Shown here piece after piece: positions 1-38,220 of a stretch of 38,876 bases of DNA. The stretch is taken from positions 1 through 38,876 of the IMG/VR virus record IMGVR_UViG_3300033997_000186; one strand, 5' to 3'. The DNA comes from a virus. The translations under genes and the position numbers were made by a program. Numbering within the stretch: the stretch's first letter is position 1; every line of letters starts with the position of its first letter. The notes beneath the pieces were generated by a model. That model searched no databases, had not been told where the DNA came from, and saw nothing but the letters and a program-made list of their open reading frames with translations.

Positions 1-127
1 TTCTGGTTGAGGCGGTAGCGCTTCGACCGCTCGGCCGACAGGCGCTTGGCGCGGTCTTCTTTCGACTCGCCTGGCACCGCGTAGAAATGGTCGCGCAGGG
101 CCTCTTTCGATTTCGGGATAGGGTCGC
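1..127. repeat. Terminal overlap: bases 1-127 are identical to 38750-38876 (circular-assembly overlap, unique length 38749 bp)
   Basis: Direct comparison of the first and last 127 nt shows an exact match. The length equals a common de Bruijn k-mer size. Confidence 0.95.
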
Positions 128-167
128 TTTTGTCCGAGGAGTGGACCAGGCGCAGCGCAGCACTCAT
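1..167 (-). CDS. 5' part of an early ORF that spans the circular junction (continues from 38749 down to 38452; about 154 aa in total)
   Basis: An in-frame ATG at 165-167 (minus strand) overlaps the TGA of the upstream gene (ATGA coupling). The frame stays open through base 1 into the 38452..38826 ORF once the overlap is collapsed. Confidence 0.6.
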   Translation of the reverse strand, partial: MSAALRLVHSSDKSDPIPKSKEALRDHFYAVPGESKEDRAKRLSAERSKRYRLNQ

Positions 168-763
168 AGGGTTTCACCGTTCAACTTGGCCAGGAGCAAC
201 AGCGGCAGCGGGCGACCGGTGCCAGTCGACAAGGCCACCAGCTCGTTGAACATCGCGGCGATAGCCTCGGCGCCCTCTGTGAGCATTTCGTCGACCTGGT
301 CCGGGTCGTCGGTGTGGTCGTACTTGCCGTCGTGCGCCGGGGCGCTGGCGGCGAGGAAGTCACCAACCGCCTGCGTGACTTCACCCAAGCGAGCACGCGC
401 GGCAGGAACACCTACCAGGCCAACGAGCTCATGGATTCGGACGTCGAAACAGCCAGCCATGGCCAACAGCTCGGAGCGGGCGGCCTTCTGGTAGTCCTCG
501 GGCAGGCAGGAGAGCCAGGCCCATTTCCATTCCAGGGGGAACGGCTGGGTTTCGTGGAAAATGCGGGATACACGCTGCGCCCACGCCTTGCGGGTGCGCT
601 GGTAGGCCTCGATATCGGCTGGCTCCTCCATGGGGTCAATCAACCCCGCGGCCGCCAGTGCTGGCGCCAAGCGCTCGCTTGCGAAGCGCTCTAGTGACCA
701 GTCCGAATGGGCAAACCATCGGCTAGTCTGATCGACAACCACGTCGCGTTCTGTCCGAGTCAT
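164..763 (-). CDS. First gene of the leftward early operon, divergent from cI. Hypothetical; possibly a CII/YdaT-like regulator.
   Basis: ORF track 164..808. I prefer the ATG at 763, which is preceded by GGAAAGG. There is a weak by-eye resemblance to the YdaT / 186 CII pattern (W..R....ET.P.P.E....L.LPED). No Cro-sized ORF is present. Confidence 0.6.
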   Translation of the reverse strand: MTRTERDVVVDQTSRWFAHSDWSLERFASERLAPALAAAGLIDPMEEPADIEAYQRTRKAWAQRVSRIFHETQPFPLEWKWAWLSCLPEDYQKAARSELLAMAGCFDVRIHELVGLVGVPAARARLGEVTQAVGDFLAASAPAHDGKYDHTDDPDQVDEMLTEGAEAIAAMFNELVALSTGTGRPLPLLLLAKLNGETL

Positions 764-811
764 ATAGCACCTTTCCCTGAAAAATGGGTCGCATGTATCC
801 CTGCCCACATT

Positions 812-856
812 CTCTATATATCGAGCAAAAACGCAAATAAATTCTTATATATCGAG
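812..856. promoter_or_regulatory. Candidate repressor operators in the cI / early-operon divergent region
   Basis: CTCTATATATCGAG (812-825) is a 14-bp near-palindrome. TCTTATATATCGAG (843-856) shares an identical 11-mer, TATATATCGAG, 31 bp away. Both are AT-rich in a GC-rich genome. Confidence 0.5.
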
Positions 857-911
857 TGGTGCCGCTAGGCATTCCGAGGGGAAAATAATGCTTAGAAAAG
901 GAGAGGGAACC

Positions 912-1577
912 ATGCAACGCGATTTCACAATCGGCACCGCAATACGGACGCGGCGGCAAGCCCTTGGATGGTCGCTGCAGCGCCTGATCGACGCCTCGAA
1001 TTTGGAGATGTCGACCGGCCACCTAGCGACCCTAGAAACGAAGGACGTCGCCCCGAGCGTCTATGTCGCCGACGCACTGGCGAAAGGCCTGGGGACGACC
1101 GTCGACATACTGCTCAAAGAGGCGAGGAATCCGAATGGATTCACAGCGCCCAGCGAGCACGCCCAGCGCGTGCCTGTCATACCGTGGGCGCTGGCAGCCG
1201 AATGGGTGAAGAACCCCGACCCTACAAGGCTTCCAGCCGGTACAGCATGGGTGATGCCGCCCGAGTCGCCAGCGGGCCGGGTGTTCGCTATGACAGTGCG
1301 CGATGAAGGCATGCAGGCGCCGACCGGTGTCAGCTTCCCGCCTGGCTATACGATTTTCGTCGACCCTGCTCGAAAGCCGGTTGCCAATGATTTCCTGGTC
1401 GCTCACCTGAGCGACCAGGCCGCGCCCGTGTTCAAAAAACTGACACTCGACGGTTCGGCGTACTATTTGCGCGCACTAAACCCGCAGTTCCCCATGGTCC
1501 AGGTCGGTGATACATTCGAGAGCATTGGTGTCGTCGTCGGCCTGCGTGCTGGCTTCGACAAAGGGGGGATTCTATAA
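912..1577 (+). CDS. cI: Lambda-CI-type prophage repressor (XRE HTH plus S24/LexA-like C-terminal domain; nucleophile Ser replaced by Gly)
   Basis: The C-terminal half aligns by eye to lambda CI: VRDEGMQAPTG..FPPGYTIFVDP...FKKL...LNPQFPM versus VEGNSMTAPTG..FPDGMLILVDP...FKKL...LNPQYPM. There is an alternative ATG at 888. Confidence 0.9.
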   Translation: MQRDFTIGTAIRTRRQALGWSLQRLIDASNLEMSTGHLATLETKDVAPSVYVADALAKGLGTTVDILLKEARNPNGFTAPSEHAQRVPVIPWALAAEWVKNPDPTRLPAGTAWVMPPESPAGRVFAMTVRDEGMQAPTGVSFPPGYTIFVDPARKPVANDFLVAHLSDQAAPVFKKLTLDGSAYYLRALNPQFPMVQVGDTFESIGVVVGLRAGFDKGGIL

Positions 1578-1664
1578 AAAGAGTGCGCCAGTCTTCTAAA
1601 TATAGAGAGGACGACGTAAAGTAGCGGGGCTACCCGCTAACGAGCTGTATTTTTTCAAAAGTGA

Positions 1665-1706
1665 GAAAGACAAAAGGCCGGGAGGCTTTAGCAACCCCCC
1701 GGCCTT
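1665..1706 (-). terminator. Orphan rho-independent-type terminator oriented on the minus strand in the cI-repA spacer
   Basis: A 9-bp stem (AAGGCCGGG 1674-1682 / CCCGGCCTT 1698-1706) is followed on the minus strand by TTTTGTCTTTCTC. No minus-strand CDS lies upstream of it. Confidence 0.35.
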
Positions 1707-1840
1707 CGCGATAGACGCACACCTTGCGGTGCCAAATCTGAGCAATCGGTTATCTGTTTTAGCGGGCAGACGACACGATCAAAACCACGAACTTCGACGT
1801 TCAGTGCTCAGTTTAGGCCCATGCGCACCCGCGTCAATCG

Positions 1841-1910
1841 TTTGTACTTTTTTACTTTTGTACTTTTGACCAAAGGGACAAAATGACAAACGTACAAAAG
1901 GACAAGGGCC
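1841..1910. repeat. Array A of 8-bp units (4 x TTTTGTAC-type then 5 x AAAAGGAC-type), overlapping the repA RBS and start codon
   Basis: tttgtac ttttttac ttttgtac ttttgacc aaagggac aaaatgac aaacgtac aaaaggac aagggcc, with a strict 8-bp register. Confidence 0.7.
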
Positions 1911-4900
1911 TGGCCGGCTTTTACGAGGAGCGGTTTAACTCCGACCCGTACAGCCTCATGGCTTACTTCGACGCTCAGATCAGCGCTGCAGCTGCTGACG
2001 TCTCTCTAAAGTGGTCTTCCGTCTCCAGCGCCGTGCGCCTCAACGGCAAGCCGCTGGCCAAGTATTCAAAAACCAAACCTGTTGCCCTCGAAACCCGTTA
2101 CCACGGGAAGGTGATGGTTTGGGGCGAGGTGAAGGAGACCGCCGCCAAGGACGACCTGGCCGAATTTGAATACCCGTTCCTCACCTTCTCGAACAACGTC
2201 ACCGGGTCGAGCACCTGGTCAGGCTTTACTGCGCTCCTCGAACTTTACAAGGATTCCCGCGGTGTCGTCTCTGACGATCGCCACCGCAAATGGCAGGCCG
2301 AGCAGGAAAAGCGGCGCGCCGAGCGTGAAGCCAAGCGCGAGGCCGAAGAAGCGGCCGAGCGCATTCGTGCCGAGCGCGTGGAAAAAGAGCTGGCGGCGTA
2401 CAAGCACGCTTGGCTGACCGGCGAGCGCGGCGAATTCGACTACGAAGGCACCAGCCGCGGCCGCGCCTACATCGGGCGCGGGTTTGTCGAGGTCCTGGGC
2501 GAGGAGGACGGCAGCTCTCCTTACTTGCAGGCGAAACAGATTTCTGACGTAGCGTCACGCTTCAAAATGTTGAAAATGCGTGACCGTCACGGTGAATTCA
2601 CCGCCGTTCCTCTCTACGATGCCTATCGAAATTTCCTCGGCCTGCAGCGCCTCTATGCTGACAAAAAGCTGCAGGGGACCGGCGTCAAGATGGCTGGCGC
2701 CCATTGCATCCTGGGCGACCTGGAAACCGCGCAGGTCCGTTTCGCGGTCGAAGGTTTCGCAACCGGCGCCAGCATCTACCTGGCAGAGCTCGAGGCCGGC
2801 CGTAACGTTGCGGTCGTCGTGACCTTCAACGTCGACAACCTGGTAAAGGTGCTGCATGTCTATGACAAGCTGTATCCGGCCTGGCGCTTCTGGAATGGCG
2901 CCGACAATGACCAGTGGAAGACCTCAGGCAATGCCGGCTTGCTGGCGGCCCTGGAAGTGCATAAAGAGCTGCAGCACCCTGGCATCGTTCCGCAGTTCAA
3001 GCTGACCGAGGAGCAGATCGCCGAGGCCAAGGCCACCGGCAAAGGTCCGACCGACTGGAACGACTTCCACGTCCTCTACGGCCTGAAAGCCACAGCCAAG
3101 GCTCTGCATGCCCGCGCCAGCGTGTTTCACGCCCAAAAAGACTGGTTCAGCTACTGCCTGCAGCGCGTCGAGCGCAGCGGGCGTTTCGCCGAGAAGGCCG
3201 CGAAAATGGCGATCAGCGGCGGCATGAACCTGGTCCCGATCAAGTACAGCACCGACGACGTCATTCGAGCGGTGCTCGAGGTGCTTCCCGCCGTGGCACC
3301 GGTCGAGCTGCGCACGAAGCTGCGTAGCCTGGCCTTGTGGATCGCCAACCAGCGCCGCAACCAGGCCCAGCAGCTGCGCAGCTTCTCGCCTGACGCCTTG
3401 AACAAGCCATATGTGCAGTACATGCCTATCGCTGCAGTGCCGCACCCGGAGCACGGCAGCCCGATGCTTCCTGGCCACCTGGCCGACCTGGTCGAGAGCC
3501 TCGAGGGGACCATCATCGTTCGCGCCCCAATGGGCAGCGGCAAAACCGAGGACCTGATCGCACCCGTACTGCAGGCGTCGACCAAAGGCGCTTATATCGC
3601 CCACCGAATTTCCCTGATGGATGATGCCACCGCCCGCTTGAACCTGGACCGCGAAGGCAACCAGGTCGACGCCAAAGTCGAGCATTACCAGCTGGTCAAC
3701 GCCTGGCAGATGCCCTACGTCTCGCACCTGACCTGCTGCGTCAACAGCCTGACCAACAAGAAATTTTACAACGCCGAGGACCGCAGCTGGTTTACCACTC
3801 TCGAAACCATCTGCATCGACGAAGCGAGCCAGGTTCTGCGCCATGTCACCTCAGGCCCGGTAGAGGGCCGCGTGCGCGTCATGGACGCACTGATCGAGGC
3901 CGTCAGCTCGGCCAAGCGCGTCGTACTGTGCGACGCCGACGCCAATGACTCGGTTATCGAGTTCTGTGCCTTGGCGCGTCCTGGTCAGATCATCACCGTT
4001 ATCGATATCCAGGGGCAGAACAAGCAAATTCGCGTCGACCACGGCGACGACGAAAGCGTCTGGCAGCTGGCGATCGACAAGATCAGCGAAGGCCGTCGGG
4101 TGATGGTTGCCAACGACTCGGCCGAGAGTGCAAAGAAAATGGCGGCCCTCATTGAGCAGATGGTCGAAGCCGGCGAAATGCCCGAGCGGCGAATGCTCCT
4201 GGTACACGCTGACAGCAAGGCCGACCCGGACGTCGAGGCGTTCCTCAGCGACCCGAAAAGCGAGGCCCTCAAGTATGACGTGCTGATCTACTCGCCCGCT
4301 ATTTCGTCGGGCGTCTCGATGAATCAGGCGCATTTCGAGTGCCATTTCGGCCTGTTCAGTGGCAACTCTGTCGGGCCATCCGACGCCCTGCAGATGCTTC
4401 GCCGCGATCGGACGGCAACCCACTACATCATCGGCATCGGCCACAGCTCGAGCCAGCGGGAAACGAACCCCGAGGTTATGTATCGGGGCATGATGGTGCT
4501 CGAGGAGCTGGCCTGCCAGATCGAGAACACCCCCGAGGAATTTCGCGTCGTGCGCAAAAAGACTGCATTCGACAAGGTCTATCTGTCGACTGTGACCTCT
4601 GAGAACCGCGCCCGCGCCAACTTTGCCAACAACCTGCTGCTGATGCTCGAGGCCGAGGGCTACCTAGTCCAGCGGCTCGACCTGCAGGGCGCCGAGGAGG
4701 AGCTCGCCGAGCTGTCCAGGATCAATCGCAAGTTCGCCGCCGAGCTGGTTTTCAGCAAGCGTATGGACTTGATCGAAAGCGTAACCACCCCCGACGAAGC
4801 CGAATTCTTGCGCCTCAACCGCCAGGAAGTGCGCAGCGAGGCCGAGAGTGCCCGCGTCGATCGCTACCACATTGAGCACCAGCTCTGCGTGGACGATATC

Positions 4901-5731
4901 AGCGCCACCGACGTCGCTTTCTACGATGATCGCGGTATCGACAAGGTGCGCGCCCTGGAGCTGCTGCAGTCCACTGCCGAGCAGGCCAAGGGTTACGACC
5001 TCGCCCAACGCAAGGCGCGGTCGGTCCTCACGCAGCATCGATTCAAGGCAGCTCCTCGCGCCATGCTCGAGGAGATTTTCGCCATCCTGACCCTGGACCG
5101 CATGACAGGCCTCGGGGAGTTCAACAGCGACCAGTGCCGCGAGGTCCGGGACCTGATCAAGTCCGACCAGGACACGCTGGATATCTACAATACCCTCAAG
5201 CTCGGCCGCTACATCCCGACGCTGGCCTCTAAGGTCTGCGCCACCACGCTTGTGAAATCGATCCTCGACCGCCTGGGCCTCACCACGAAAAAGCGTAAGA
5301 CGAACGGCCAGAACCTTTACCAGCTCAACATGGATAATTGGCACTTCGTTATGGGCTACTTACAGCGCCGCGCTGCCCGAAACGTCCACTCCCTGGCTGC
5401 CCATGAGCATGAAACCACGCACCAGCCCCTGCTGGCCCCTGAGGAGCCCGCAGATGCACCTGCGTATGTGTTCGCTGAAAGCAGGGACACTTTGCATTGT
5501 GAGGGTGTAAGCACAGATGAAAAGTATCCCTTGGAGGTAATCGAGCGGATTTGTGCTGTTGCTTCGCTTTGCGAGCTCCCCCCCGGTATCTCTGTTGCCC
5601 GCCTGGTGGGGGCGCTCAGCCCGGACCTGGTCAACCAGGTGACGGGGCCGAACGCGGACATGGCGGCCGCCAAGTGGACGTTGGATTATGCGGCGCGATT
5701 ACTTAGCCAGGAGACGCGGTATACTGTATGA
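1883..5731 (+). CDS. repA: RepA-like replication protein (Toprim primase domain plus helicase/NTPase), N15 RepA type
   Basis: 1282 aa. Toprim-like motifs EGFATGAS and ADND. Walker A (APMGSGKTE) and Walker B (ICIDEASQ). Position next to cI and telN matches other telomere phages. Confidence 0.85.
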   Translation: MTNVQKDKGLAGFYEERFNSDPYSLMAYFDAQISAAAADVSLKWSSVSSAVRLNGKPLAKYSKTKPVALETRYHGKVMVWGEVKETAAKDDLAEFEYPFLTFSNNVTGSSTWSGFTALLELYKDSRGVVSDDRHRKWQAEQEKRRAEREAKREAEEAAERIRAERVEKELAAYKHAWLTGERGEFDYEGTSRGRAYIGRGFVEVLGEEDGSSPYLQAKQISDVASRFKMLKMRDRHGEFTAVPLYDAYRNFLGLQRLYADKKLQGTGVKMAGAHCILGDLETAQVRFAVEGFATGASIYLAELEAGRNVAVVVTFNVDNLVKVLHVYDKLYPAWRFWNGADNDQWKTSGNAGLLAALEVHKELQHPGIVPQFKLTEEQIAEAKATGKGPTDWNDFHVLYGLKATAKALHARASVFHAQKDWFSYCLQRVERSGRFAEKAAKMAISGGMNLVPIKYSTDDVIRAVLEVLPAVAPVELRTKLRSLALWIANQRRNQAQQLRSFSPDALNKPYVQYMPIAAVPHPEHGSPMLPGHLADLVESLEGTIIVRAPMGSGKTEDLIAPVLQASTKGAYIAHRISLMDDATARLNLDREGNQVDAKVEHYQLVNAWQMPYVSHLTCCVNSLTNKKFYNAEDRSWFTTLETICIDEASQVLRHVTSGPVEGRVRVMDALIEAVSSAKRVVLCDADANDSVIEFCALARPGQIITVIDIQGQNKQIRVDHGDDESVWQLAIDKISEGRRVMVANDSAESAKKMAALIEQMVEAGEMPERRMLLVHADSKADPDVEAFLSDPKSEALKYDVLIYSPAISSGVSMNQAHFECHFGLFSGNSVGPSDALQMLRRDRTATHYIIGIGHSSSQRETNPEVMYRGMMVLEELACQIENTPEEFRVVRKKTAFDKVYLSTVTSENRARANFANNLLLMLEAEGYLVQRLDLQGAEEELAELSRINRKFAAELVFSKRMDLIESVTTPDEAEFLRLNRQEVRSEAESARVDRYHIEHQLCVDDISATDVAFYDDRGIDKVRALELLQSTAEQAKGYDLAQRKARSVLTQHRFKAAPRAMLEEIFAILTLDRMTGLGEFNSDQCREVRDLIKSDQDTLDIYNTLKLGRYIPTLASKVCATTLVKSILDRLGLTTKKRKTNGQNLYQLNMDNWHFVMGYLQRRAARNVHSLAAHEHETTHQPLLAPEEPADAPAYVFAESRDTLHCEGVSTDEKYPLEVIERICAVASLCELPPGISVARLVGALSPDLVNQVTGPNADMAAAKWTLDYAARLLSQETRYTV

Positions 5732-5741
5732 AAGTACAGTA
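5722..5741. promoter_or_regulatory. LexA (SOS) box TACTGTATGAAAGTACAGTA
   Basis: CTGT-N8-ACAG with flanking TA...TA. It matches 16/20 positions of the E. coli-type consensus TACTGTATATATATACAGTA. It overlaps the repA stop codon and lies 34 nt upstream of the SD of ORF 5775..6059. Confidence 0.8.
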
Positions 5742-5774
5742 GTGGCTTTTTAACACTAAGGGGAGGGATTCACC

Positions 5775-6059
5775 TTGCAGTGCCAGGAAAAAATGGACCG
5801 AGCGTCCGAGCAACTCAGTCGCGCCAAGTCGGCGCTTAGTTTGGCCATGAAGGCCGGTATGGAAGCAACACGAGGTGAACTGCTGGACGTTATCGCCGCG
5901 GTATTCGAGAGGGTGGAGGGAGCAGAGACGGCACTGCGAGCAGGAGAAAACAAGGATGCCCAGCCGGGGCAGTTGACCCCAGCTGGTTCGAGAACTGATG
6001 CGGTGCAAAATCAGTTGCGGGTTGTTCCTTTCGCCGCCAGCGCCAGCAGCGCGTCATAA
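5775..6059 (+). CDS. Small ORF between repA and telN; candidate SOS-controlled antirepressor / induction factor
   Basis: A strong SD (AAGGGGAGGG, 5759-5768) sits 6 nt before a TTG at 5775, with an in-frame ATG at 5793. Predicted to be helical and acidic. The 3' end overlaps the telN 3' end convergently. Confidence 0.5.
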   Translation: MQCQEKMDRASEQLSRAKSALSLAMKAGMEATRGELLDVIAAVFERVEGAETALRAGENKDAQPGQLTPAGSRTDAVQNQLRVVPFAASASSAS

Positions 6060-7645
6060 GCACCCGCTTTGCTGTCACCGTCCGCCCTGGCGATTTCCAC
6101 GCCATTGAGTCGGGCGACAGCGACCCAGCGGCCAGCGTCCTCTGTCACCGAGATACGCGGCTTAGCATTGACCACCTCTGCCGGAACAGCCGGCGCGACC
6201 GCTCGACTTGAGCGGTTCGGGGTCGCCAGGGCTTCACTGGCCATAGCCAGGTAGTCCTTGATCGCTTGCCGGTGGCTGCCTACGTTCACAGAGATTGCTT
6301 TCTGCGAGATAAGGACGTCAGGCGAGGCGGCCACAGCTTGTTTCACCCATGCGTGAATACGCTGCGAAGCAACACCGCCCGCGGCTTGTTCGTCGAGCGC
6401 CTCGAGCGCCTCGAGCCGGCTGCCGTACTTGCTTTCGGGCTCGGCCGGGACGTCGTTGGTGTAAGTGATCTTGAAAGCCTTGTAGCTCTCCTGGGTGTCC
6501 ATGTCTTCATGGCCCAGCATTTCCCGCCAGAACACCGTTTCGTTGACGCTTTTCCAGCGTGCATCCCGCGTGAAATGAGTCTCGAAAACGATCCTCGCCC
6601 ATATCGCCCGGCTGTCCTTGAACACGCGATCGGGGCTGCCCAGCACCCGCTTGGCCACGGTGTTTAGGGTCTTGGCCACACGCCGGTTTACCTCGATGTT
6701 GTCCAGGTGCTGCAGCTCCAGGACTTCGGGCAGCACCCGCAGGCGCTCGAGCGCCTCGAGCACCAGGTCAGCCTTGAGCAGGGTGTAGATGCGGTAGCTC
6801 GAGCCGTAATCGACCCCGTTCCGGCGCTTGGCCTGTCCGCTGAATTCGAGCTCATACTCGCCGGCCTTCTCGAAGCGGCCGAGCTTGAGCACCTCGATTT
6901 CACGGCGGCCCGTGACCATCGCCAGCCCCATCGCCAGCGACGAGAAGCGCTGCACCGGCTCGCCGTTGGCGCCGATTTCAGCGTCGGTCAGCAGGCGCTG
7001 CGCGGTGTCGACATACTGGTAATAGTTGACCTCGACAGTATTGGTCGCGCGCTCCTCAAGGGTGGCCGTGGCCATGGTGGCCAGCTCGGCCTTTGTGACC
7101 GCGGGCAGCACCAGATGCCGCATGATTTCGTGGTCCAGCTTCATCGCCTGGATAGCCTCGAAAGCGTCGTGGTCGCGGTCCTGGCGGATCTGCGCCAGCA
7201 GCTCGCGGTGCGCGAGCCGCAGCTCGGTGATGTTGTCCAGGTCGACCAGGGCGAGCAGCTGCTCGGCGTACCGCGGGTGATGCTTAGCCAGGCGCCTGGC
7301 CGACTCCTCAATGCCATGGTGGCGCCAGTTCTGCGCGGTCACGGCCTTGCGGACGAGGGTCAGGTAGCGGCGATAGCTCGACGGGCGCAGCTTGTCGTCG
7401 TCCTTGCGGCGCTTGTCCTCATACAGGCGCTTTTTCAGGCTCTCAGCGATGCGCGTGATGCGCTTCGTCTTCTCGCTGCGCGACATGTGCGGGTCGCTGT
7501 CCACCAGCCTGACGTCCTGCAGCATTTTGTCGATCATGGGCTGCAGCTCGACCTTTTGCCGAGTAGCCCCGCCGTAGTTGCCAAAGCTGGCGCGCTCCTG
7601 GTCCTGTCCCATCGCCTCATCACCCTTCGTCAGTTCGTCGCTCAT
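6011..7645 (-). CDS. telN: Protelomerase (telomere resolvase)
   Basis: Matches remembered N15 TelN blocks: TGRREIEV / SGRRMIEI, FSGQAKRR / FSGQAKKR, IYTL, VFKDSRAIWARIVFE / VYKDSRAIYARIAYE, RWK.V.E.VF..EMLGHEDMDTQESYKAFK / RWKNVDEDVFFMEILGHDDENTQLHYKQFK. I prefer the ATG at 7645 over the TTG at 7711. Confidence 0.95.
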   Translation of the reverse strand: MSDELTKGDEAMGQDQERASFGNYGGATRQKVELQPMIDKMLQDVRLVDSDPHMSRSEKTKRITRIAESLKKRLYEDKRRKDDDKLRPSSYRRYLTLVRKAVTAQNWRHHGIEESARRLAKHHPRYAEQLLALVDLDNITELRLAHRELLAQIRQDRDHDAFEAIQAMKLDHEIMRHLVLPAVTKAELATMATATLEERATNTVEVNYYQYVDTAQRLLTDAEIGANGEPVQRFSSLAMGLAMVTGRREIEVLKLGRFEKAGEYELEFSGQAKRRNGVDYGSSYRIYTLLKADLVLEALERLRVLPEVLELQHLDNIEVNRRVAKTLNTVAKRVLGSPDRVFKDSRAIWARIVFETHFTRDARWKSVNETVFWREMLGHEDMDTQESYKAFKITYTNDVPAEPESKYGSRLEALEALDEQAAGGVASQRIHAWVKQAVAASPDVLISQKAISVNVGSHRQAIKDYLAMASEALATPNRSSRAVAPAVPAEVVNAKPRISVTEDAGRWVAVARLNGVEIARADGDSKAGAYDALLALAAKGTTRN

Positions 7646-7647
7646 AC

Positions 7648-7982
7648 ATACACCCTTTGCCCTAGTGAAAGATAGCAGGCTATTGCCATACACCCATAGC
7701 CCGCGTGTCAATAAGCATCATTGTACACCCATTGCCAGTGCATGTATACACCCATTACCCAATCTCACCTAATATACACCCATAGCCCAATATACATGGC
7801 TTAGTGCGCTCTATATTGGGCAAAGGGTGTATACACCGATCCCCCATTCTATACGTATAGAATGGGGGATCGGTGTATACACCCTTTGCCCTATGACTAT
7901 TTAGGGGTATGGGTGTATACAGGTACGGGCTATGGGTGCATGGGGATAGAGGGCTATGGGTGTACATATACACCCATAGCCC
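7648..7982. repeat. Array of about 11 copies of a 16-mer family, TAYACACCC(A/T)T(A/T)GCCC, arranged symmetrically around the tel palindrome
   Basis: Forward copies start near 7648, 7687, 7722, 7744, 7772 and 7877. Inverted copies start near 7818, 7905, 7928 and 7951, with one more forward copy at 7968. A 32-bp near-palindrome lies at 7951-7982. Confidence 0.8.
7818..7891. other. Telomere resolution site (telRL-like): 74-bp perfect palindrome centred between 7854 and 7855
   Basis: GGGCAAAGGGTGTATACACCGATCCCCCATTCTATACGTATAGAATGGGGGATCGGTGTATACACCCTTTGCCC, with every pair checked by hand. The core CCATTCTATACGTATAGAATGG resembles N15 telO, CCATTATACGCGCGTATAATGG. Confidence 0.9.
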
Positions 7983-8232
7983 TATGTCATAATGCCATTT
8001 GCCAAGGGTGATAGCTTGCGGGGGACTAATAGCGGAATGAGCCTGGTTGATGGCCAACAGGCCATAAAGGAGCGTCAAGCGCCTATACACCCCAAGGACC
8101 AGGCAGGGTCCTTTCTACAGGGCTATAGCGCCTAACCCGCATGCAGCAAGGGCTGCAGCGCTAAGGGGTAAGGACAGCGCTCGGCGCGGGGGCAGAGTGA
8201 CGGATAATGTGGCGCTTCGCGCCGCTGTTTGT

Positions 8233-8278
8233 TTGTACCTTTGACCTTTAGGCCTATTGTACAAAGGTACATTTGTAC
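8233..8278. promoter_or_regulatory. Array B of 7-8-bp TTTGTACC-type units upstream of parA (candidate par operator/centromere)
   Basis: ttgtacc tttgacc tttaggcc tattgtac aaaggtac atttgtac, lying 38 bp upstream of the parA ATG. Confidence 0.65.
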
Positions 8279-8315
8279 GTATATTGAGGGCCTCACCAAC
8301 TGCGAGGCCTTCGAC

Positions 8316-8963
8316 ATGGCAGCAAGAGTCTGGACAATACAGAACCAAAAGGGCGGCACGACAAAGACCACGACCGCAACCAATATCGCGTGCTGCCTGG
8401 CTGACAAGCACGGCAAAAGCGTGCTCCTGGTCGACCTGGACGGCCGCCAAGGCTCGGCAACCGACTGGGCAACCTCCCGCGCTGACAGCGCTACGCTGAT
8501 CCCCTGCGTCATCATGCGCGAAACCCTAAAGCGCGACCTGCCGCGTATCTCGAGCGGTTACGACTACGTGATCATCGACGGGATACCGCAAATCAGCACC
8601 CTTACCTCTGACGCCGTTAAGGCCTCTGACCTGGTCGTCATCCCCGTGCAGCCAAGCCAGTACGACATATGGGCGACCGCCGACATGGTGCAGCTCGTAA
8701 AGGACCGCCAGGAGATTACCGGGGGCACGCCAAAGGCCGTGCTGATGATCGCCAGGGCCATCGCCGGCACCCTCCTCGAGCGCGACGCGCAGCAGGCGCT
8801 GCTCAACTACGAAATGCCGATCACCGCCACCCAAACGCACCAGCGCGTCGCCTACGGCAAGGGCATCGCCCAGGGCAATAGCGTTATGGACCTACCACCG
8901 TCCGACGACGCCCGCCTCGAGATTGAAGCGCTGACCGCCGAGCTGCTGGAGCTTGATAAATGA
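8316..8963 (+). CDS. parA: ParA partition ATPase (small type Ib, no N-terminal HTH)
   Basis: Deviant Walker A QNQKGGTTKTT, then VLLVDLD and YVIIDG. GAGG lies 8 nt upstream of the ATG at 8316. Confidence 0.9.
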   Translation: MAARVWTIQNQKGGTTKTTTATNIACCLADKHGKSVLLVDLDGRQGSATDWATSRADSATLIPCVIMRETLKRDLPRISSGYDYVIIDGIPQISTLTSDAVKASDLVVIPVQPSQYDIWATADMVQLVKDRQEITGGTPKAVLMIARAIAGTLLERDAQQALLNYEMPITATQTHQRVAYGKGIAQGNSVMDLPPSDDARLEIEALTAELLELDK

Positions 8964-9271
8964 CCACCTCGAAAATCACCACCGCCCGCCCAAGCCGCGC
9001 CGTCGCGTCTGGCATTGAGCCGCATGTCGAGAAGGCCCGCCGCGCCGTTGTGAGCGACGCTGTCGAGGAGAAGCAGCTAAAAGCGATCGTGCCGACGAAG
9101 TACCACAAGGGCACCACCGACATTAAAAACATGTCGCTCGACAACGTGCCTGTTAAGTACCTGATCATCGAGGCGCTCGACGACCTTTTCAGGAAGTACG
9201 AGCAAGGGGAGGGGCATTACAGCATCGAGGACCAGGAGGAGCTGGCGCGTCGATTGAAGTCATTGAAGTGA
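8960..9271 (+). CDS. Small centromere-binding protein, ParG/omega-like ribbon-helix-helix (predicted)
   Basis: 103 aa, ATGA-coupled to parA. Disordered basic N-terminus, then a beta-helix-helix pattern (KQLKAIVPTKYHKG...VKYLIIEALDDLFRKY). Confidence 0.65.
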   Translation: MTTSKITTARPSRAVASGIEPHVEKARRAVVSDAVEEKQLKAIVPTKYHKGTTDIKNMSLDNVPVKYLIIEALDDLFRKYEQGEGHYSIEDQEELARRLKSLK

Positions 9272-9337
9272 TAGAGACGCCCGGCAGCGGCTGCAACCGC
9301 TAACCGGGCAAGGACCGATAGACCTAGGGGGTTAACC

Positions 9338-9493
9338 ATGTCCAACCGCGACTATACCACAGTGCGCAGCATGAGCCTGCGCGATGCAGTAGACCCAGCC
9401 AATCGCGCCCTGGTGCGCGCCTACTTCGCGCAAGAGTGCTGCCTGATCGCCTGGCACGGCTTCCTGCGCTCGATCGGGGAGGCTGCCCAGTGA
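9338..9493 (+). CDS. Small ORF (51 aa), first gene of the accessory operon
   Basis: Not in the ORF track (under 60 aa). ATG preceded by AGGGGG. High GC3. Its stop overlaps the next start (GTGA). Confidence 0.45.
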   Translation: MSNRDYTTVRSMSLRDAVDPANRALVRAYFAQECCLIAWHGFLRSIGEAAQ

Positions 9494-9642
9494 AGCGCAC
9501 CGACGACCCGACCGGCCTGCAGTTCCTGTTTACCGGCATCGTGGCCATTGCTCTCGGCCTGCAGCTGGCGTGGGTATTCCTGCACCGCCTCTACACCCAG
9601 CGTTTCGACCACCAGGAAACCAACAAGGACGACCAACCATGA
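9490..9642 (+). CDS. Small single-pass membrane peptide (50 aa, GTG start)
   Basis: In frame with track ORF 9436..9642. GGGGAGG lies 8 nt upstream. Hydrophobic core LQFLFTGIVAIALGLQLAWVFL. ATGA-coupled to the next gene. Confidence 0.45.
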   Translation: MKRTDDPTGLQFLFTGIVAIALGLQLAWVFLHRLYTQRFDHQETNKDDQP

Positions 9643-9983
9643 AATTCCCTGCAGCTGCACTCCTGGTCGCGCTGGCGATCGCCGCCACCGCGCCGGCACA
9701 CGCCCGCGACTGCGACATAGACCGCGACGGGCGCAAAGACGCTACGTGCGGCGGACCTGACCGCGACCTCGACAACGACGGGCGCACCGACGCCAGGTTC
9801 GGCGGCCCCGACCGTGATATCGACAACGACGGCCGCACCGACGCCAAGTTCGGCGGGCCTGACCGGGACCGCGACAACGACGGGCGAACCGACGCGACGT
9901 TCGGCGGCCCCGATCGCGACCTCGACAACGACGGGCGCACCGACCGCCGATTCGGCGGCCCAGACGACCGCTGGGGGCGCTGA
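9639..9983 (+). CDS. Secreted protein with 17-aa DxDxDG calcium-binding-type (thrombospondin type 3-like) tandem repeats
   Basis: Signal peptide MKFPAAALLVALAIAATAPAHA, then 4.5 copies of GGPDRDxDNDGRTDAxF. Confidence 0.75.
   Translation: MKFPAAALLVALAIAATAPAHARDCDIDRDGRKDATCGGPDRDLDNDGRTDARFGGPDRDIDNDGRTDAKFGGPDRDRDNDGRTDATFGGPDRDLDNDGRTDRRFGGPDDRWGR
9750..9953. repeat. Four tandem 51-bp repeats (coding repeats of the 9639..9983 gene)
   Basis: GGCGG(A/C/G)CC recurs at 9750, 9801, 9852, 9903 and 9954, a period of exactly 51 bp. Confidence 0.9.
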
Positions 9984-9984
9984 C

Positions 9985-10197
9985 ATGGCCATTACCATCA
10001 AGGTGCGCATGAGCTGCAGCGCCTACCAGGCGCGAGCCATGCGCCTTGGCGTGACTGCCAGCAGCGCCGAGAGTGCCAAGGCCGCAGCCATGGCCGTATG
10101 CCGCAAGCTGGGCGCCGATCCCGAGCTGCTCGAGCAGATTCCCGGCGACCCAATGACGACCACCTACACCCATCCGCACCAGGAGCAACCGGCATGA
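9985..10197 (+). CDS. Hypothetical protein (70 aa)
   Basis: ATG 2 nt after the upstream stop. ATGA-coupled to the following gene. High GC3. Confidence 0.55.
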   Translation: MAITIKVRMSCSAYQARAMRLGVTASSAESAKAAAMAVCRKLGADPELLEQIPGDPMTTTYTHPHQEQPA

Positions 10198-10628
10198 CCA
10201 CCACCGACCCCCGCGACGCTCTCGCGCCCTGCCCCTGGTGCGGCGAGCAAGCAACGCGCGTAATGCTGACCCACCCCGAGCCAGAGTGCGGCGAAATCCT
10301 GCGCCAGGAGGATTACGGCGACGGCGTCGACGGTGACGCGCAAGCCTTCTGCCACATGTGCGGCGCACGGCCGGCAGCCGTCGGCGTGACGCTCTACACC
10401 GCCGAGGACTACGACGAAGCGATCGCGCTGGCTGTCAGCTCCTGGAACGACCGCAAGGGCGCCGAGGTGGCCGACGCGGCGATCAGGGCGGACGCCAGGC
10501 GCTATCGCCGCCTCCTGCACGAAGGGCTGCGCTTCATGGCTGGCGGCAAGCTGCACCAGACCAAGGCCGAAACCGACGCAGCGATCGACGCCCTAGAGCC
10601 CGCCCCTGCATCAGCGTCGCGCATGTAG
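10194..10628 (+). CDS. Lar-family (restriction alleviation-like) zinc-ribbon protein with a C-terminal extension
   Basis: PCPWCG ... CHMCGA ... EAIALAVSSWNDR matches the Lar-family pattern (CPFCG...CG...A..AWN.R). AGGAG lies upstream of the ATG at 10194. Confidence 0.6.
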   Translation: MTTTDPRDALAPCPWCGEQATRVMLTHPEPECGEILRQEDYGDGVDGDAQAFCHMCGARPAAVGVTLYTAEDYDEAIALAVSSWNDRKGAEVADAAIRADARRYRRLLHEGLRFMAGGKLHQTKAETDAAIDALEPAPASASRM

Positions 10629-10639
10629 CGCGCCCCACA

Positions 10640-10665
10640 AGCCCGCCCACTCGGCGGGCTTTTTG
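10640..10665 (+). terminator. Rho-independent terminator ending the 9338-10628 operon
   Basis: An 8-bp stem (AGCCCGCC / GGCGGGCT) with loop CACTC, followed by TTTTTG. Confidence 0.75.
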
Positions 10666-10704
10666 TTACCCTGCGCGCCATCACGCAATGGAGATACGCG
10701 CAGC

Positions 10705-11058
10705 ATGAAAGCAAAGCCCCTTCTGATCGGCCTCGGCGTCGCCGTCCTGGTCATCCTCGGATTCAACGACCTGGCCAACAAGGACGCCAACGCGCTCGAG
10801 CGCGTGAGCGACCGCGTCGGCCTGCAGGTCAATTGCAGCGTGGACAAGTTCGACGGCCAGCGCTGGGGCGTGTGCCACTACCAGAACGGCGCGCCGGCAA
10901 GCGCCTGGCTCGACCGGGACGGCACCTGGATTGCCGGCAACGGCGGCGCGATCAAGGTCGTCGACCGCCTGGCCAACGTCAGCGATCTGCAGGGGCTACC
11001 GCCTGTAATGCGCGACTACGTGAAGCCGCCCGCCATGCCCGCCGCACTGTTCGAGTAG
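10705..11058 (+). CDS. Secreted or membrane-anchored hypothetical protein (117 aa)
   Basis: N-terminal MKAKPLLIGLGVAVLVILGF. It has its own SD (GGAGA) and lies between two terminators. Confidence 0.6.
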   Translation: MKAKPLLIGLGVAVLVILGFNDLANKDANALERVSDRVGLQVNCSVDKFDGQRWGVCHYQNGAPASAWLDRDGTWIAGNGGAIKVVDRLANVSDLQGLPPVMRDYVKPPAMPAALFE

Positions 11059-11073
11059 CGAGCACCAGGAACG

Positions 11074-11112
11074 AAAAAAGCCCCCACCGCCGCGAGGCAG
11101 TGGGGGCTTTTT
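11074..11112. terminator. Bidirectional terminator between the convergent plus and minus gene blocks
   Basis: AAAAAAGCCCCCAC...GTGGGGGCTTTTT: an 8-bp GC stem with an A-tract and a T-tract on either side. Confidence 0.8.
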
Positions 11113-12122
11113 CATTCCAGCGGCACAGATGCCTCAATCGTGCAGCGGTAGCTCTGTCCTCGGCTGCCACGCTCTGTAACCTTGTCGATCGACCACTGCT
11201 GGCGCATGAAGCTGGGCCAGCTGTCATCGAGCACGACCAGGCCCTCGGCGCCGTAGCCAGGATTACCAGGGCAATCAATCTGCACCTTGTACGCGCTGCG
11301 CTTGATCTTGCGCAGTTCACCCTCGCCGGCATCCTTTGCCTCGGCTTCGTTCTGGTAGCGCTGGCGCACCTTTTTGAAAGGCTTCTCGCCAGTTTCGACC
11401 ACCTTTTCCTTGCCGGTCGCCGCGTCCCACCAGGTCGTGCGCGTGCCCTTGAACTTGGCGCGGCTGTCGTCGTCCAGGGACGCCTGGATAAACGCTGAAT
11501 CCCCCGGCCTGTTGTCGTTCGTGAGCGAGATAGTCATCACCGGCAGGGTTTTGCCCGACAGCGACTTGAGCTGGCCGCGGCGAGCCATGACATACAGCTC
11601 GTTTACCGGCTTCGTGACGGCGTCGTACTGGCGCGCGATCCTGGTCAAGAACCCCATGTCAGTCTCGTTCGACTGGTCGACGTGCTCGATCTTGATCGCG
11701 TCCAGCTCGGGCGCGATCCGCGGCGAGAAGCCGTGACGGCCAGCCAGCTCGCGGAACACCGCGCCCAAGGTCGTCGGGCCATAGCTGGCCGAGCGACGCG
11801 CCTTGAATTCCGTCTCGTCGGCGACCTTGAACGGCGCGGCCGTGGCCACAATCTGCAGCTGCGACGGGAACAGTTGCGGTGTTACGCGCGTAACGACGAA
11901 CTGGCCAGCGTCGACCAGGCCGGATTCCTTGTAGCCGCGCCGAAAGCCGATTTTCTCGTCGACGCTTGGCAGTCCCTCGATGCCCTCAGTGCTCACCGTC
12001 AACCTGAGGGTGTCCGACTGGACCCCCGCCGCGTCGACGTACTCCCAGTCGATTAACCGGGAGTTGATCAGCCCAGCATTTGCGCCCGTCACCTCGACGG
12101 CCGGCGTGTACCCCAACGACAT
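11112..12122 (-). CDS. P2 gpD-like tail protein (late control D family)
   Basis: 336 aa. Last gene of the tail block, following gpU/gpX-like genes. The sequence pattern is typical of gpD. Confidence 0.75.
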   Translation of the reverse strand: MSLGYTPAVEVTGANAGLINSRLIDWEYVDAAGVQSDTLRLTVSTEGIEGLPSVDEKIGFRRGYKESGLVDAGQFVVTRVTPQLFPSQLQIVATAAPFKVADETEFKARRSASYGPTTLGAVFRELAGRHGFSPRIAPELDAIKIEHVDQSNETDMGFLTRIARQYDAVTKPVNELYVMARRGQLKSLSGKTLPVMTISLTNDNRPGDSAFIQASLDDDSRAKFKGTRTTWWDAATGKEKVVETGEKPFKKVRQRYQNEAEAKDAGEGELRKIKRSAYKVQIDCPGNPGYGAEGLVVLDDSWPSFMRQQWSIDKVTERGSRGQSYRCTIEASVPLE

Positions 12123-22956: not shown

Positions 22957-23951
22957 AAGGTCCTGACCTCAATCTCGATCGCTTCACAGTACGGCGCCTG
23001 GTGCGCGGCCGCCTCGATCGGGGCCAGCGGCTCGAGCCGCTGCAGGCGCTCGGCGCCGGCCGTGATCAGGCCCGCATCGATCCAGGCTGGATCGACATAA
23101 CCCTCGAGCCGGTGCCGCGCCGTTGCGTAGGCCTGCATGGCTGCGACCGCCGCCGTTTCAGTGAGCCCCGAGTCAGGGCCGGGATTGATCCAGGCGACTG
23201 CGCGAATCCGGTAGCGCAGAATTTGCGCCGGCTGCACCGTGACCTGGTCGGTTTCGGGCCGAACGTCATCGCGGGCGAAATGCTTCCGGGTAGCCTCGAG
23301 CAGCTCGGCGCTCGGGGTGCCGTCGCCGTCGCGGCCGAGCACCGTAACCGTAACCTTGCCCGGCTCAGTAAACCGGCCGTTGGCGTCCTTGACCTGCGCC
23401 GCGAAAGCGTCCTCGGTGAAGGTGTACGTCACGACCACCTGCCCAGCGTTGGGCGCCTCTACCGTCACGTTGGCACGCTCGCCAAGGGTCAGGGCCTCGC
23501 GCCGGTACTGCAGGCGCGAGCCCGCGGCCGGTGCATGCGGCGCCAGGTAGTAGCGCAGCCGCAGGTCGTCGTCGGACTCCTCCACGGCCGGGACAGGCGG
23601 GAAGGCGTTCGGGTCGCCCTCGGAAATGACCCGCCGCTCGAGCCCCATGTCGGCCGCGCGGGCGTTGAGGTTCGACCCCTCGGCCCACCAGGCCAGCATT
23701 TGCTTGATGCGGGCATTCCATTTGCGTTCGTGGGCCTGGATTCGCAGGGTAAACGCCTGCATGGCCATGACCAGGAGCTCGCCGTCGCTCTCCATCGTCT
23801 CGGCCAGGCGCGCGGCCTTGGCCGGGTCCCTGGCCGAAACGAAGGCGAGCACCTCGGCCTTGAACTCCTCGAGCAGCGGCTCGAACTCTTCGACCTTGAC
23901 GATTTCAGGCTCGGCCAGCTGGTTGAGGCCGGGGATCAGCATCGTACTCAA
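22953..23951 (-). CDS. Baseplate protein, P2 gpJ-like
   Basis: 332 aa, between the gpW-like and gpI-like genes. Confidence 0.75.
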   Translation of the reverse strand: MSTMLIPGLNQLAEPEIVKVEEFEPLLEEFKAEVLAFVSARDPAKAARLAETMESDGELLVMAMQAFTLRIQAHERKWNARIKQMLAWWAEGSNLNARAADMGLERRVISEGDPNAFPPVPAVEESDDDLRLRYYLAPHAPAAGSRLQYRREALTLGERANVTVEAPNAGQVVVTYTFTEDAFAAQVKDANGRFTEPGKVTVTVLGRDGDGTPSAELLEATRKHFARDDVRPETDQVTVQPAQILRYRIRAVAWINPGPDSGLTETAAVAAMQAYATARHRLEGYVDPAWIDAGLITAGAERLQRLEPLAPIEAAAHQAPYCEAIEIEVRTL

Positions 23952-35829: not shown

Positions 35830-36147
35830 TCACCTCACAGCCCGGGCCCAGCCGGCTCGAGCACCTTCGATTGTTGCGTAACCATGATCGACAAAGTCGC
35901 AGCCGGCGCACCGGGAGCCCCATTGCCCACCACTGGAAAAGAACCGGGCGACGCCGTTGGCCTTGCAGGCATGCGCGGGCATTTCAGCGTCGTTGACCAG
36001 GCTCCAGGAGGACAGAGCCCTGGCCTCTACCGGGTGCGCCTCGCCGCGGTTGTTGCACACCGGACAAATCCACATGACTCGACCGGAGTCGACCTGGTGG
36101 CGACGCTCAGGAGCGACGCCGCAGTGCAGGCAGGGCAGGGCCGACAT
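35830..36147 (-). CDS. Cys-rich protein with one complete and one partial Lar-like zinc-ribbon unit
   Basis: CLHCG...CPVCN...ALSSW, then C....RCAGC...ARAGW. Confidence 0.5.
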   Translation of the reverse strand: MSALPCLHCGVAPERRHQVDSGRVMWICPVCNNRGEAHPVEARALSSWSLVNDAEMPAHACKANGVARFFSSGGQWGSRCAGCDFVDHGYATIEGARAGWARAVR

Positions 36148-36564: not shown

Positions 36565-36717
36565 CTATTTCTTGCCAACCATCAGCACCGCCAGCAGCAA
36601 AGCGACGATCACCAGGTCAGCACACATCGAGAGGAGTCGACTTGCAGAATCGACCAGGACAACGGCGCCGGCCAGCCCGAAGGCCAGCCAGTTCCGAGCA
36701 GAGGAGAGCCAGGTCAA
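36565..36717 (-). CDS. Possible 50-aa membrane peptide (TTG start overlapping the TerB-like stop)
   Basis: Hand translation gives LTWLSSARNWLAFGLAGAVVLVDSASRLLSMCADLVIVALLLAVLMVGKK. Not in the ORF track. Confidence 0.3.
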   Translation of the reverse strand: MTWLSSARNWLAFGLAGAVVLVDSASRLLSMCADLVIVALLLAVLMVGKK

Positions 36718-37151
36718 GCCGTGACCCCGAAGTCTTTCAGGCGCAGGCCGAGCTCGTTGGCGATTTCTTCCAGGACTTTCAGTTCGTCCGGGCTGATACT
36801 GCCGTCACCCTCGGCAACGGTCAGCATGTTGACGAGCACCTCCTCGGCGTCGGCCGGGCTGTCCTTGATATCGCGAATCTCGCGCATGATGTTCATGCGG
36901 CCGAGACGGAAACCGGCCTGCAGCTGCTCGGTGAACAGGTTCACTTGCTTGGTGATTTCCGGGCCGAAGTGCTCCAGCGCCTTGTTGGCACGAATCTGGA
37001 TATCGATTTGCGCCGCTTCAGCCTTGCTGATTTCACCGTCAGCCGCGGCAACCAGGAGGCAGCCCCCGACGATCGCCTGCATCAGGTCGCGGTTTTCGAG
37101 TTTCTTGATGCTACGGCCAGCGCCAAACAGCTTTTTCTTGAGTCCTAACAT
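36714..37151 (-). CDS. TerB-family (tellurite-resistance TerB-like) protein
   Basis: 145 aa. AADGEISKAE and AEGDGSISPDELKVLEEIA resemble the two TerB DG-S-EE motifs. Confidence 0.6.
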   Translation of the reverse strand: MLGLKKKLFGAGRSIKKLENRDLMQAIVGGCLLVAAADGEISKAEAAQIDIQIRANKALEHFGPEITKQVNLFTEQLQAGFRLGRMNIMREIRDIKDSPADAEEVLVNMLTVAEGDGSISPDELKVLEEIANELGLRLKDFGVTA

Positions 37152-38008: not shown

Positions 38009-38220
38009 GCGCAGCACCTCATGGCCTGCAGGCTGCTGATGCAGCTGGTGCACCTGGTCGCCCACGAACAGGCAGCCAGGCGCGGCGGGTCGATCCGCTC
38101 GCCACAGATGCGGCACGACAGCACGCTCGCGACTTCGCGCAGCGACTGATCGGTCTGGAACTCCTTTTCTATGGCGTCGTCGGCACGGAGCTCGAGCCCG
38201 CCAAGTACATCAGTGGACAC
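38005..38220 (-). CDS. TraR/DksA-family C4 zinc-finger protein
   Basis: CRICGERIDPPRLAA....TRCTSC. GTG start. Confidence 0.6.
   Translation of the reverse strand: MSTDVLGGLELRADDAIEKEFQTDQSLREVASVLSCRICGERIDPPRLAACSWATRCTSCISSLQAMRCCA

Follow-up and report, generated by a model that had tools for sequence, protein, structure and literature searches.

The repressor gene cI, at positions 912 to 1,577 of the virus record IMGVR_UViG_3300033997_000186 (38,876 nucleotides, analysed over its whole length and referred to here as the window), is the predicted lysogeny repressor gene of a Pseudomonas telomere phage of the VP882/phiHAP-1 group. The C-terminal domain of its product appears to retain the S24 fold and the catalytic Lys but to lack both the nucleophile Ser and the Ala-Gly scissile bond, and this cI very probably does not undergo RecA-stimulated self-cleavage. 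We favor, with moderate confidence, the explanation that induction has been delegated to a small antirepressor under the control of host LexA, encoded between the replication gene repA and the protelomerase gene telN. The elements of cI on which the argument depends are as follows.

912–1577, plus strand: cI prophage repressor of 221 amino acids, with a probable N-terminal helix-turn-helix (HTH) and a C-terminal S24-fold domain predicted to be catalytically degenerate (Pfam, PHROG, lambda CI and VP882 homology).
1194–1199, plus strand: former cleavage site, Ala95-Ala96 (alignments, codons read).
1302–1313, plus strand: degenerate G-x-S-M motif, D-E-G-M (phmmer and MAFFT alignments).
1434–1436, plus strand: Lys175, in the general-base column (phmmer and MAFFT alignments).

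The start codon at 912 is preceded by a Shine-Dalgarno sequence, GGAGAGGG, 6 nt upstream, and the same Met is shared by the relatives of the protein. The product matches PHROG 4, transcriptional repressor (E 2e-25), and is 36% identical over 97% of its length to the cI of phage VP882, with the same neighboring genes. The gene is divergent from the cII-like/Q lytic operon and lies directly upstream of repA, as in hapunavirus-like telomere phages. Matches to HTH families fall slightly under their cut-offs (HTH_3, 21.8 bits vs 23; HTH_31, 22.7 vs 27). In the AlphaFold2 (AF2) model, five helices occupy residues 8–72, and Foldseek returned matches to full-length lambda repressor and to the HTH domains of ClgR and DdrO. 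The preliminary description, made by eye from the letters, had stated that the S24 fold is kept, and this is borne out at the level of prediction. The protein matches Pfam Peptidase_S24 (PF00717) with E 6e-12 and 45.7 bits against a cut-off of 23.3, and the modeled C-terminal domain (overall predicted local distance difference test score, pLDDT, 82) superimposes on the lambda CI C-terminal domain, 1f39, with a TM score of 0.84 and a root-mean-square deviation of 1.5 Å over 95 columns. In a phmmer search of PDB sequences, residues 111–210 also align to the crystallized C-terminal domain of lambda CI (E 3e-12).

The nucleophile column of the S24 active site was assigned by phmmer and MAFFT, including alignments of 49 and 44 sequences, and all runs agree. 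It is occupied by Gly133 (codon GGC, 1308–1310), the equivalent of S149 in lambda CI and S130 in VP882 cI. The phmmer alignment to lambda CI pairs vrdeGmqaptg with vegnSmtaptg at high posterior probability, and MAFFT alignment with lambda CI, E. coli LexA and VP882 cI places Gly133 in the same column. The replacement of Ser by Gly had been proposed beforehand and is upheld by every alignment, none of which brings a Ser into this position. Lys175 (AAA, 1434–1436) stands in the general-base column with lambda K192, LexA K156 and VP882 K172, and the neighboring block reads LNPQFPM; both the catalytic Lys and the LNPQ(F/Y)PM block are therefore conserved, as the preliminary description had it. Two further changes are, as read from the alignments, beyond what that description had caught. 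The former scissile site is Ala95-Ala96 (1194–1199, codons GCA GCC) in the context WALAAEW, compared with HVQAGMF, whereas it is Ala-Gly in lambda CI, LexA and VP882 cI; self-cleaving S24 proteins carry either Ala-Gly or Cys-Gly in this linker. The motif D131-E132-G133-M134 (1302–1313) stands where G-x-S-M is expected, with the first Gly replaced by an invariant Asp131. Another possible cut site, A109-G110 in the context LPAGT, was considered and rejected; it is not kept as Ala-Gly in relatives, and the cI is in any case without a nucleophile.

It could be argued that the Gly is an artefact of alignment or annotation and that this is an ordinary self-cleaving CI. The Pfam match begins at profile position 20 and leaves the cleavage-site region uncovered, and nothing else speaks for such an error. 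Conversely, phmmer and three MAFFT alignments agree, the V-x-x-x-[S]-M-Q-A-P-x-G context is unambiguous, the GGC codon is present in the raw sequence, and the same residue occurs in independent assemblies. We consider this explanation very nearly untenable. The Gly is also found in 15 of the 47 relatives described below, including the 95%-identical P. aeruginosa and P. monteilii records, and since it recurs there and in independent assemblies, it is not a sequencing quirk.

The consequences of such changes can be judged from VP882 cI, the closest characterized homologue, for which A91-G92 was assigned as the cleavage site and S130/K172 as the dyad on grounds of homology, and in which S130A, K172A and G92D each abolish autoproteolysis stimulated by activated RecA (RecA*) (bioRxiv 10.1101/2019.12.16.877910). 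The window cI is naturally altered at two of these three positions. Because its nucleophile is Gly and its scissile bond Ala-Ala, and because VP882 cI S130A and G92D do not cleave, no self-cleavage is predicted. The earlier claim that RecA-stimulated self-cleavage is not the route of induction thus finds support at the sequence level. The C-terminal domain is, on this evidence, a predicted non-peptidase homologue of the S24 autoproteases, whose fold and Lys are probably kept for dimerization and stability.

Proteolysis might still remove cI by other routes. Another S24 protein or a host protease (Lon/ClpXP, with the small open reading frame (ORF) described below perhaps acting as an adaptor) could cleave it in trans, and Ser- or Thr-bearing relatives could retain residual self-cleavage at a non-canonical site. 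Such routes would fit the invariance of Lys175, the good conservation of S24 pocket residues, the Ser or Thr found in the nucleophile column of a part of the relatives, and the intermolecular cleavage by UmuD that is cited in bioRxiv 10.1101/2019.12.16.877910. However, the Gly of the window cI cannot serve as a nucleophile and no Ala-Gly is present at the site. VP882 cI is cleaved only intramolecularly, the wild type leaving S130A uncut in trans (bioRxiv 10.1101/2019.12.16.877910), and the free drift of the nucleophile column among relatives speaks against catalytic constraint. We therefore regard removal by proteolysis as improbable.

This drift became apparent from a search of 5.8 billion proteins, which returned 46 cI relatives of 46–95% identity; those with a named source are all from Pseudomonas, and many lie on contigs of 36–39.7 kb. 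Over the 47 relatives, the nucleophile column holds Gly and Ser 15 times each, Leu 11 times, Ala three times, Thr twice and Gln once. The cleavage-site pair is Ala-Ala in 33, Ala-Ser in nine, Ala-Gly in two, and Ala-Thr, Val-Ser and Ala-Asn in one each, so that Ser at the P1′ position totals 10 once the Val-Ser member is counted. The two Ala-Gly relatives carry Leu in the nucleophile column, and Ser and Ala-Gly occur together in none of the 47 relatives and in none of 41 distinct locus-encoded cI sequences. The general-base Lys is invariant in this Pseudomonas clade. Among the 41 locus-encoded sequences, the nucleophile column ranks 18th of the 137 C-terminal-domain columns, with an entropy of 1.99 bits, and its Ser is coded by AGC as well as by TCG/TCA codons. 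Since the column is variable between the invariant D131 and M134, and its Ser is drawn from both codon types, the position bears the signature of release from catalytic constraint. The catalytic loss is thus predicted to be a property of the whole clade and not of the window phage alone. The decay differs by lineage. The P1′ Gly is lost in all degenerate lineages; Halomonas/phiHAP-1-type lineages have kept Ser and changed Lys to Arg, whereas in Pseudomonas-type lineages the Lys is kept and the Ser column varies.

A repressor of this kind would require a separate inducer, as the preliminary description had pointed out, and this claim is strengthened by a concrete candidate, a small ORF that is conserved, is preceded by a LexA box and lies, outside the immunity region, in the gap between the convergent genes repA and telN.

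1883–5731, plus strand: repA, primase-helicase replication gene of linear plasmid prophages (PHROG 4913, E 6e-286).
5720–5739, plus strand: candidate LexA (SOS) box CTGTATGAAAGTACAG (5724–5739), overlapping the −10-like TATACT (5720–5725) and straddling the repA stop codon.
5775–6059, plus strand: small ORF of 94 amino acids, candidate SOS-controlled antirepressor, with a TTG start, a Shine-Dalgarno sequence GGGGAGGG 7 nt upstream, and unnamed homologues.
6011–7711, minus strand: telN protelomerase gene, convergent with repA (Pfam ResT-TelK_cat, E 4e-30, and TelK_stirrup).

The motif CTGT-N8-ACAG is that of LexA in most beta- and gamma-proteobacteria, in which the sites usually overlap that of RNA polymerase (PMC3323433). 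A strict search of the window found it twice. The site CTGTATGAAAGTACAG is the only CTG-N10-CAG of the window with an A+T-rich core (8/10), and of the 20 positions in the extended E. coli consensus, TACTGTATATATATACAGTA, its region shares 16, every mismatch being central and less critical. The core of the other match, at 32972, is rich in G+C, and chance probably accounts for it. A CTG-N10-CAG box of the A+T-rich kind recurs in every one of the 29 listed related loci whose repA end is complete, no more than about 20 nt away from the stop codon of repA; the background rate predicts 0.03 per site. At these loci (T/G)ATA comes before the box and the small ORF after it, and the sequence of the box varies (27 distinct 24-mers). 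LexA would thus be expected to bind at 5724–5739, at a promoter that the −10-like element suggests.

The ribosome-binding sequence GGGGAGGG stands 36 nt downstream of the box. The small ORF lies between the stops of repA (5731) and telN (6011) and overlaps the 3′ part of telN with its final 16 codons. Its homologues form 30 clusters of gene-caller-predicted proteins, all of them unnamed and without a Pfam domain, and it is unannotated in the P. aeruginosa plasmid record CP075795.1. Searches of Pfam and PHROGs with the small ORF returned nothing. The first 45 residues are strongly conserved and the tail is variable. The ratio of nonsynonymous to synonymous substitution rates (dN/dS) was 0.09–0.25 for the eight of nine relatives in which it could be computed, the proportion of synonymous differences (pS) being saturated in the ninth. 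Because of the 30 predicted clusters, the conserved N-terminus and the low dN/dS, the small ORF looks like a real gene under purifying selection. Its AF2 model is a helical hairpin (H2–26 and H33–55) followed by a disordered tail. The tail is rich in Pro and Gly and carries a conserved PG-x-x-(A/T)-P-A(G) motif, which often contains Ala-Gly. VP882 and other linear plasmid phages keep small antirepressor genes in this same repA-telN gap (PMC10432266). The candidate is thus a likely inducer of the prophage, a role that would follow from its position, its apparent regulation and the need for an inducer.

The relation between the state of cI and the box was surveyed with loci anchored on RepA rather than on cI. 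Distinct cI sequences were counted, and those with Ala-Gly, Ser and Lys were taken as canonical.

Degenerate cI: LexA box after repA, 36; no box, 1.
Canonical cI: LexA box after repA, 0; no box, 4.

The four canonical sequences are VP882-like, and their gap carries an ORF of 233–235 amino acids for a vqmA-like transcription factor instead of the box. Conversely, the 279-bp gap of the window holds no transcription-factor ORF and has the host LexA box instead. Two kinds of outlier were encountered among viral contigs. In L133/L135, cI reads G-E-S with Lys changed to Arg and an Ala-Glu site, no LexA box is present, and the repA-telN gap is 1 kb long. In L142, cI has G-D-S and the Lys with a Leu-Asn site, and a box lies 57 nt after repA. 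These may represent intermediate or alternative states of the switch.

The downstream targets of the proposed circuit lie on the other side of cI.

164–808, minus strand: cII-like activator gene (PHROG 4834, E 8.5e-54; layout as in VP882 gp60–gp62).
812–858: candidate cI operators, two exact copies of TATATATCGAG (815–825 and 846–856), 31 bp apart, inside near-palindromes.
37163–38116, minus strand: Q-like gene (PHROG 304 and Pfam PF06323).

The cII-like gene is the first of a divergent operon that runs across the window ends to Q, and the copies of TATATATCGAG sit in the 103-bp divergent region between it and cI, which makes these repeats candidate operators for cI. We propose a circuit built on the degenerate active site, the predicted fold, the conserved box and the apparent purifying selection on the small ORF, as these are read from the sequence. 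In the lysogen, host LexA would occupy the box at 5724–5739, overlapping the −10 element of the small-ORF promoter, and keep the small ORF repressed. On DNA damage, self-cleavage of LexA would allow the 94-residue helical-hairpin protein to be made. We infer that this protein would bind cI and act as an antirepressor, removing cI from its operators without proteolysis, and that the loss of cI would release the cII-like and Q lytic operon. DNA damage would probably still be the trigger, acting indirectly through cleavage of host LexA and not of cI.

A second possibility, to which we give distinctly less weight, is that cI is dead as a protease but that the LexA-controlled small ORF is not its antirepressor. 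The small protein could instead modulate replication, telomere resolution or host division with SOS timing, or serve as an anti-defense or DinI/SulA-like factor. In that case some other factor, of phage or host origin, would inactivate cI, or induction would be spontaneous or independent of SOS. The small ORF has no homology to any characterized antirepressor, its location between repA and telN, overlapping telN, makes a link to replication or telomere resolution conceivable, and one degenerate-cI lineage (L133/L135) is without the box. However, the box and the small ORF go closely together with degenerate cI and are missing from relatives with a canonical cI, and proven antirepressor small ORFs occupy the same gap in related phages (PMC10432266). 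In addition, no other antirepressor or protease family was recognized among the genes scanned, neither an ImmA/IrrE-type protease nor an Ant/KilAC/Bro antirepressor being present among ten small early and accessory ORFs.

Several observations weigh against the LexA-controlled antirepressor circuit that we prefer. The screen for other antirepressors took in only part of the small ORFs of the genome. A sigma-70 promoter scan of 5500–6300 gave no promoter at the threshold of the scan, and the −35 element is poor. The surveyed loci are related, so that the counts of 36, 4, 1 and 0 overstate their independence; judged by motif types, they correspond to about 6–8 lineages. Comparison of the small-ORF family by hhalign with Qtip, the LexA-box ORF of N15 and ORF35 of phiHAP-1 gave probabilities of ≤1%, and a Foldseek search of the PDB with the small-ORF model returned generic helical hairpins only (E >0.6). 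Finally, the invariance of Lys175 and Asp131 is not accounted for by simple decay.

A more speculative idea, which we think unlikely, is that the S24 domain has been repurposed. Lys175, Asp131 and an intact cleft would dock the PG-x-x-(A/T)-P-A(G) tail of the small protein as a pseudo-substrate in trans, and the repA-telN gap would be a swappable sensor slot. If so, the old protease pocket would have become a receptor that reads the SOS signal, and the repA-telN gap of hapunavirus-like phages would hold either a LexA box or a quorum-sensing transcription factor, each driving a small antirepressor suited to the condition of the cI C-terminal domain.

The antirepressor circuit preferred here has well-studied counterparts. 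LexA-controlled antirepressors of non-cleavable repressors are known as AntC in N15, Tum in 186 and GfoA/GfhA in the Gifsy phages (PMC3121763), and the principle has thus already been established by 186, N15 and the Gifsy phages. The closest parallel is N15, which is likewise a telomere (linear-plasmid) phage. Its repressor CB carries an HTH and, like the window cI, a degenerate S24 domain that Pfam still recognizes (35.9 bits). However, CB has lost both Ser and Lys, with Gln in their place in VGNQI and ITIQRL, respectively, whereas the window cI keeps the Lys. CB has been shown to be non-proteolytic (PMC10432266), and N15 is induced through AntC, an antirepressor in the SOS regulon, according to Mardanov and Ravin 2007 as cited in PMC3121763 and PMC10432266. 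In N15, a LexA box, CTGTGTTTATATACAG (record position 39564), is followed by a small helical ORF without annotation. There the box and ORF are far from repA-telN (at 39.5 kb), whereas in the window they lie inside that gap; the small proteins have no sequence similarity, the repressors fall into separate clades, and N15 possesses, in addition, an immA anti-immunity system. The N15 RefSeq record leaves the ORF of about 75 amino acids after the LexA box unannotated (L080, 17565–17832); it is presumably antC. The same record labels CB as 'LexA family' despite its two changes to Gln, at the Ser and at the Lys.

The Vibrio phage VP882, studied by Silpe and Bassler, shares with the window the gene order cII-like, cI, repA, small ORF, telN, with its small antirepressor, Qtip, in the repA-telN gap. 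Qtip binds the N-terminal domain of VP882 cI without proteolysis (bioRxiv 10.1101/2019.12.16.877910). In contrast to the window cI, VP882 cI undergoes self-cleavage with RecA*, its A91-G92, S130 and K172 all being intact. Expression of the VP882 small ORF depends on the phage quorum-sensing transcription factor VqmA-phage, with no SOS box at the repA end, and Qtip is unrelated in sequence to the window small ORF. The CI/Tum pair of coliphage 186 and the GfoR/GfoA and GfhR/GfhA pairs of the Salmonella Gifsy phages follow the same logic as the proposed circuit, a non-cleavable repressor being inactivated by a small LexA-repressed protein (PMC3121763), but these repressors have no S24 domain (about 136 amino acids in Gifsy; another fold in 186 CI) and the phages are integrated prophages, not telomere phages.

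phiHAP-1, a phage of Halomonas, resembles the window in its genus-level architecture. In its repressor, ORF37, the former cleavage site is Ala-Ala and the dyad is degenerate (FVAAANP, DDDSM and LFRQL); ORF37 differs from the window cI in that Ser is kept and Lys is changed to Arg. Its repA stop is followed by a LexA box, CTGTATACTTGAACAG, and then by ORF35, a 95-residue ORF of unannotated function that overlaps telN and has no significant similarity to the window small ORF. No characterization of ORF37 or ORF35 was found in the literature. phiHAP-1 was reportedly obtained by mitomycin C induction (Mobberley et al. 2008). The related phage HMP1 (92% average nucleotide identity to phiHAP-1) is inducible with mitomycin C, and the two differ in the prophage-repressor region (PMC9170930).

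The window is predicted to be a complete or near-complete telomere (linear-plasmid) phage of Pseudomonas, of the VP882/phiHAP-1 type. This assignment is made because of repA with a convergent protelomerase gene, an 80-bp palindrome followed by parA, the near-identity to Pseudomonas plasmids, and a gene order shared with VP882: cII-like (minus), cI (plus), repA (plus), a short gap and telN (minus). The RepA protein is 45–63% identical to those of VP882, phiHAP-1 and Pseudomonas relatives.

7815–7894: candidate telomere resolution site, an 80-bp palindrome with 40-nt arms, 98% complementary, between telN and parA.
8229–8963: parA, beyond the palindrome.

The flanks of the palindrome (7720–7995) hold many inverted copies of a TATACACCCATAGCCC-like motif, and together they presumably form a telomere resolution site with accessory TelN-binding repeats. 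Three copies of TTTGTACTTTT with 8-bp spacing lie at 1841–1867, immediately upstream of the repA start codon, and are possible iterons or regulatory repeats of repA.

Over its first 7.9 kb, the window shares 95% identity with two plasmids, pSTW0522-72-1 of P. monteilii (AP022474.1) and pPHPALO418 of P. aeruginosa (CP075795.1), and the genes of the matching plasmid records are all labeled 'hypothetical' or generically. These records came from the plasmid collection; megablast of the window against the phage collection gave a sole match, to 36 nt of phiHAP-1. At 79,236 bp, NZ_AP022474.1 has about double the length of the phage genome, and the query finds seven matching places in it; a hairpin-ended linear replicon may be represented here as a head-to-head dimer or through an artefact of assembly. 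The 36-nt stretch, at 11076–11111, is 100% identical to an unannotated spot of phiHAP-1 (23278–23313) and is the only nucleotide-level match to that otherwise diverged phage; it is 91% identical to two P. aeruginosa plasmids of about 76 kb. It forms a G+C-rich hairpin between an A-run and a T-run, resembling a bidirectional terminator.

Other genes of the window include an ORF at 9570–9983 (plus) with a signal-peptide-like N-terminus and five tandem GGPDRD-x-DNDGRTDA repeats, weakly similar to thrombospondin type 3 calcium-binding repeats, which is possibly a secreted moron protein. A TerB-like (tellurite resistance) protein is encoded at 36714–37151 (minus) in the early-left operon, downstream of Q (PHROG 632, E 2e-52, and Pfam TerB), and two Lar-like restriction-alleviation genes lie at 35830–36147 (minus) and 10098–10628 (plus). 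An Rfam search of positions 1–12000 gave no match.

Silpe et al. 2023 divided 271 cI proteins of linear plasmid phages into 61 predicted to be autoproteolytic and 210 'putatively non-autoproteolytic' ones, the latter not being studied; their panel includes AP022474.1, the near-twin of the window (PMC10432266). No published description was found of the combination seen in this clade, in which an apparently dead S24 cI that retains its Lys is accompanied by a LexA box and, in the qtip slot, by an orphan small ORF. The window system brings a testable circuit but no new principle. If correct, it would fill in the group set aside in that study and would give a defined induction circuit for the linear-plasmid prophages of Pseudomonas, including P. 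aeruginosa. DNA-damaging antibiotics of the ciprofloxacin type would induce these prophages through LexA and a new family of small antirepressors, and not through repressor cleavage. Within one phage lineage, the same slot would hold either a quorum-sensing module of transcription factor and small ORF, accompanied by a live-protease cI, or a LexA-box small ORF, accompanied by a dead one, and the piecemeal decay of the active site would provide a clean natural case of pseudoenzyme evolution.

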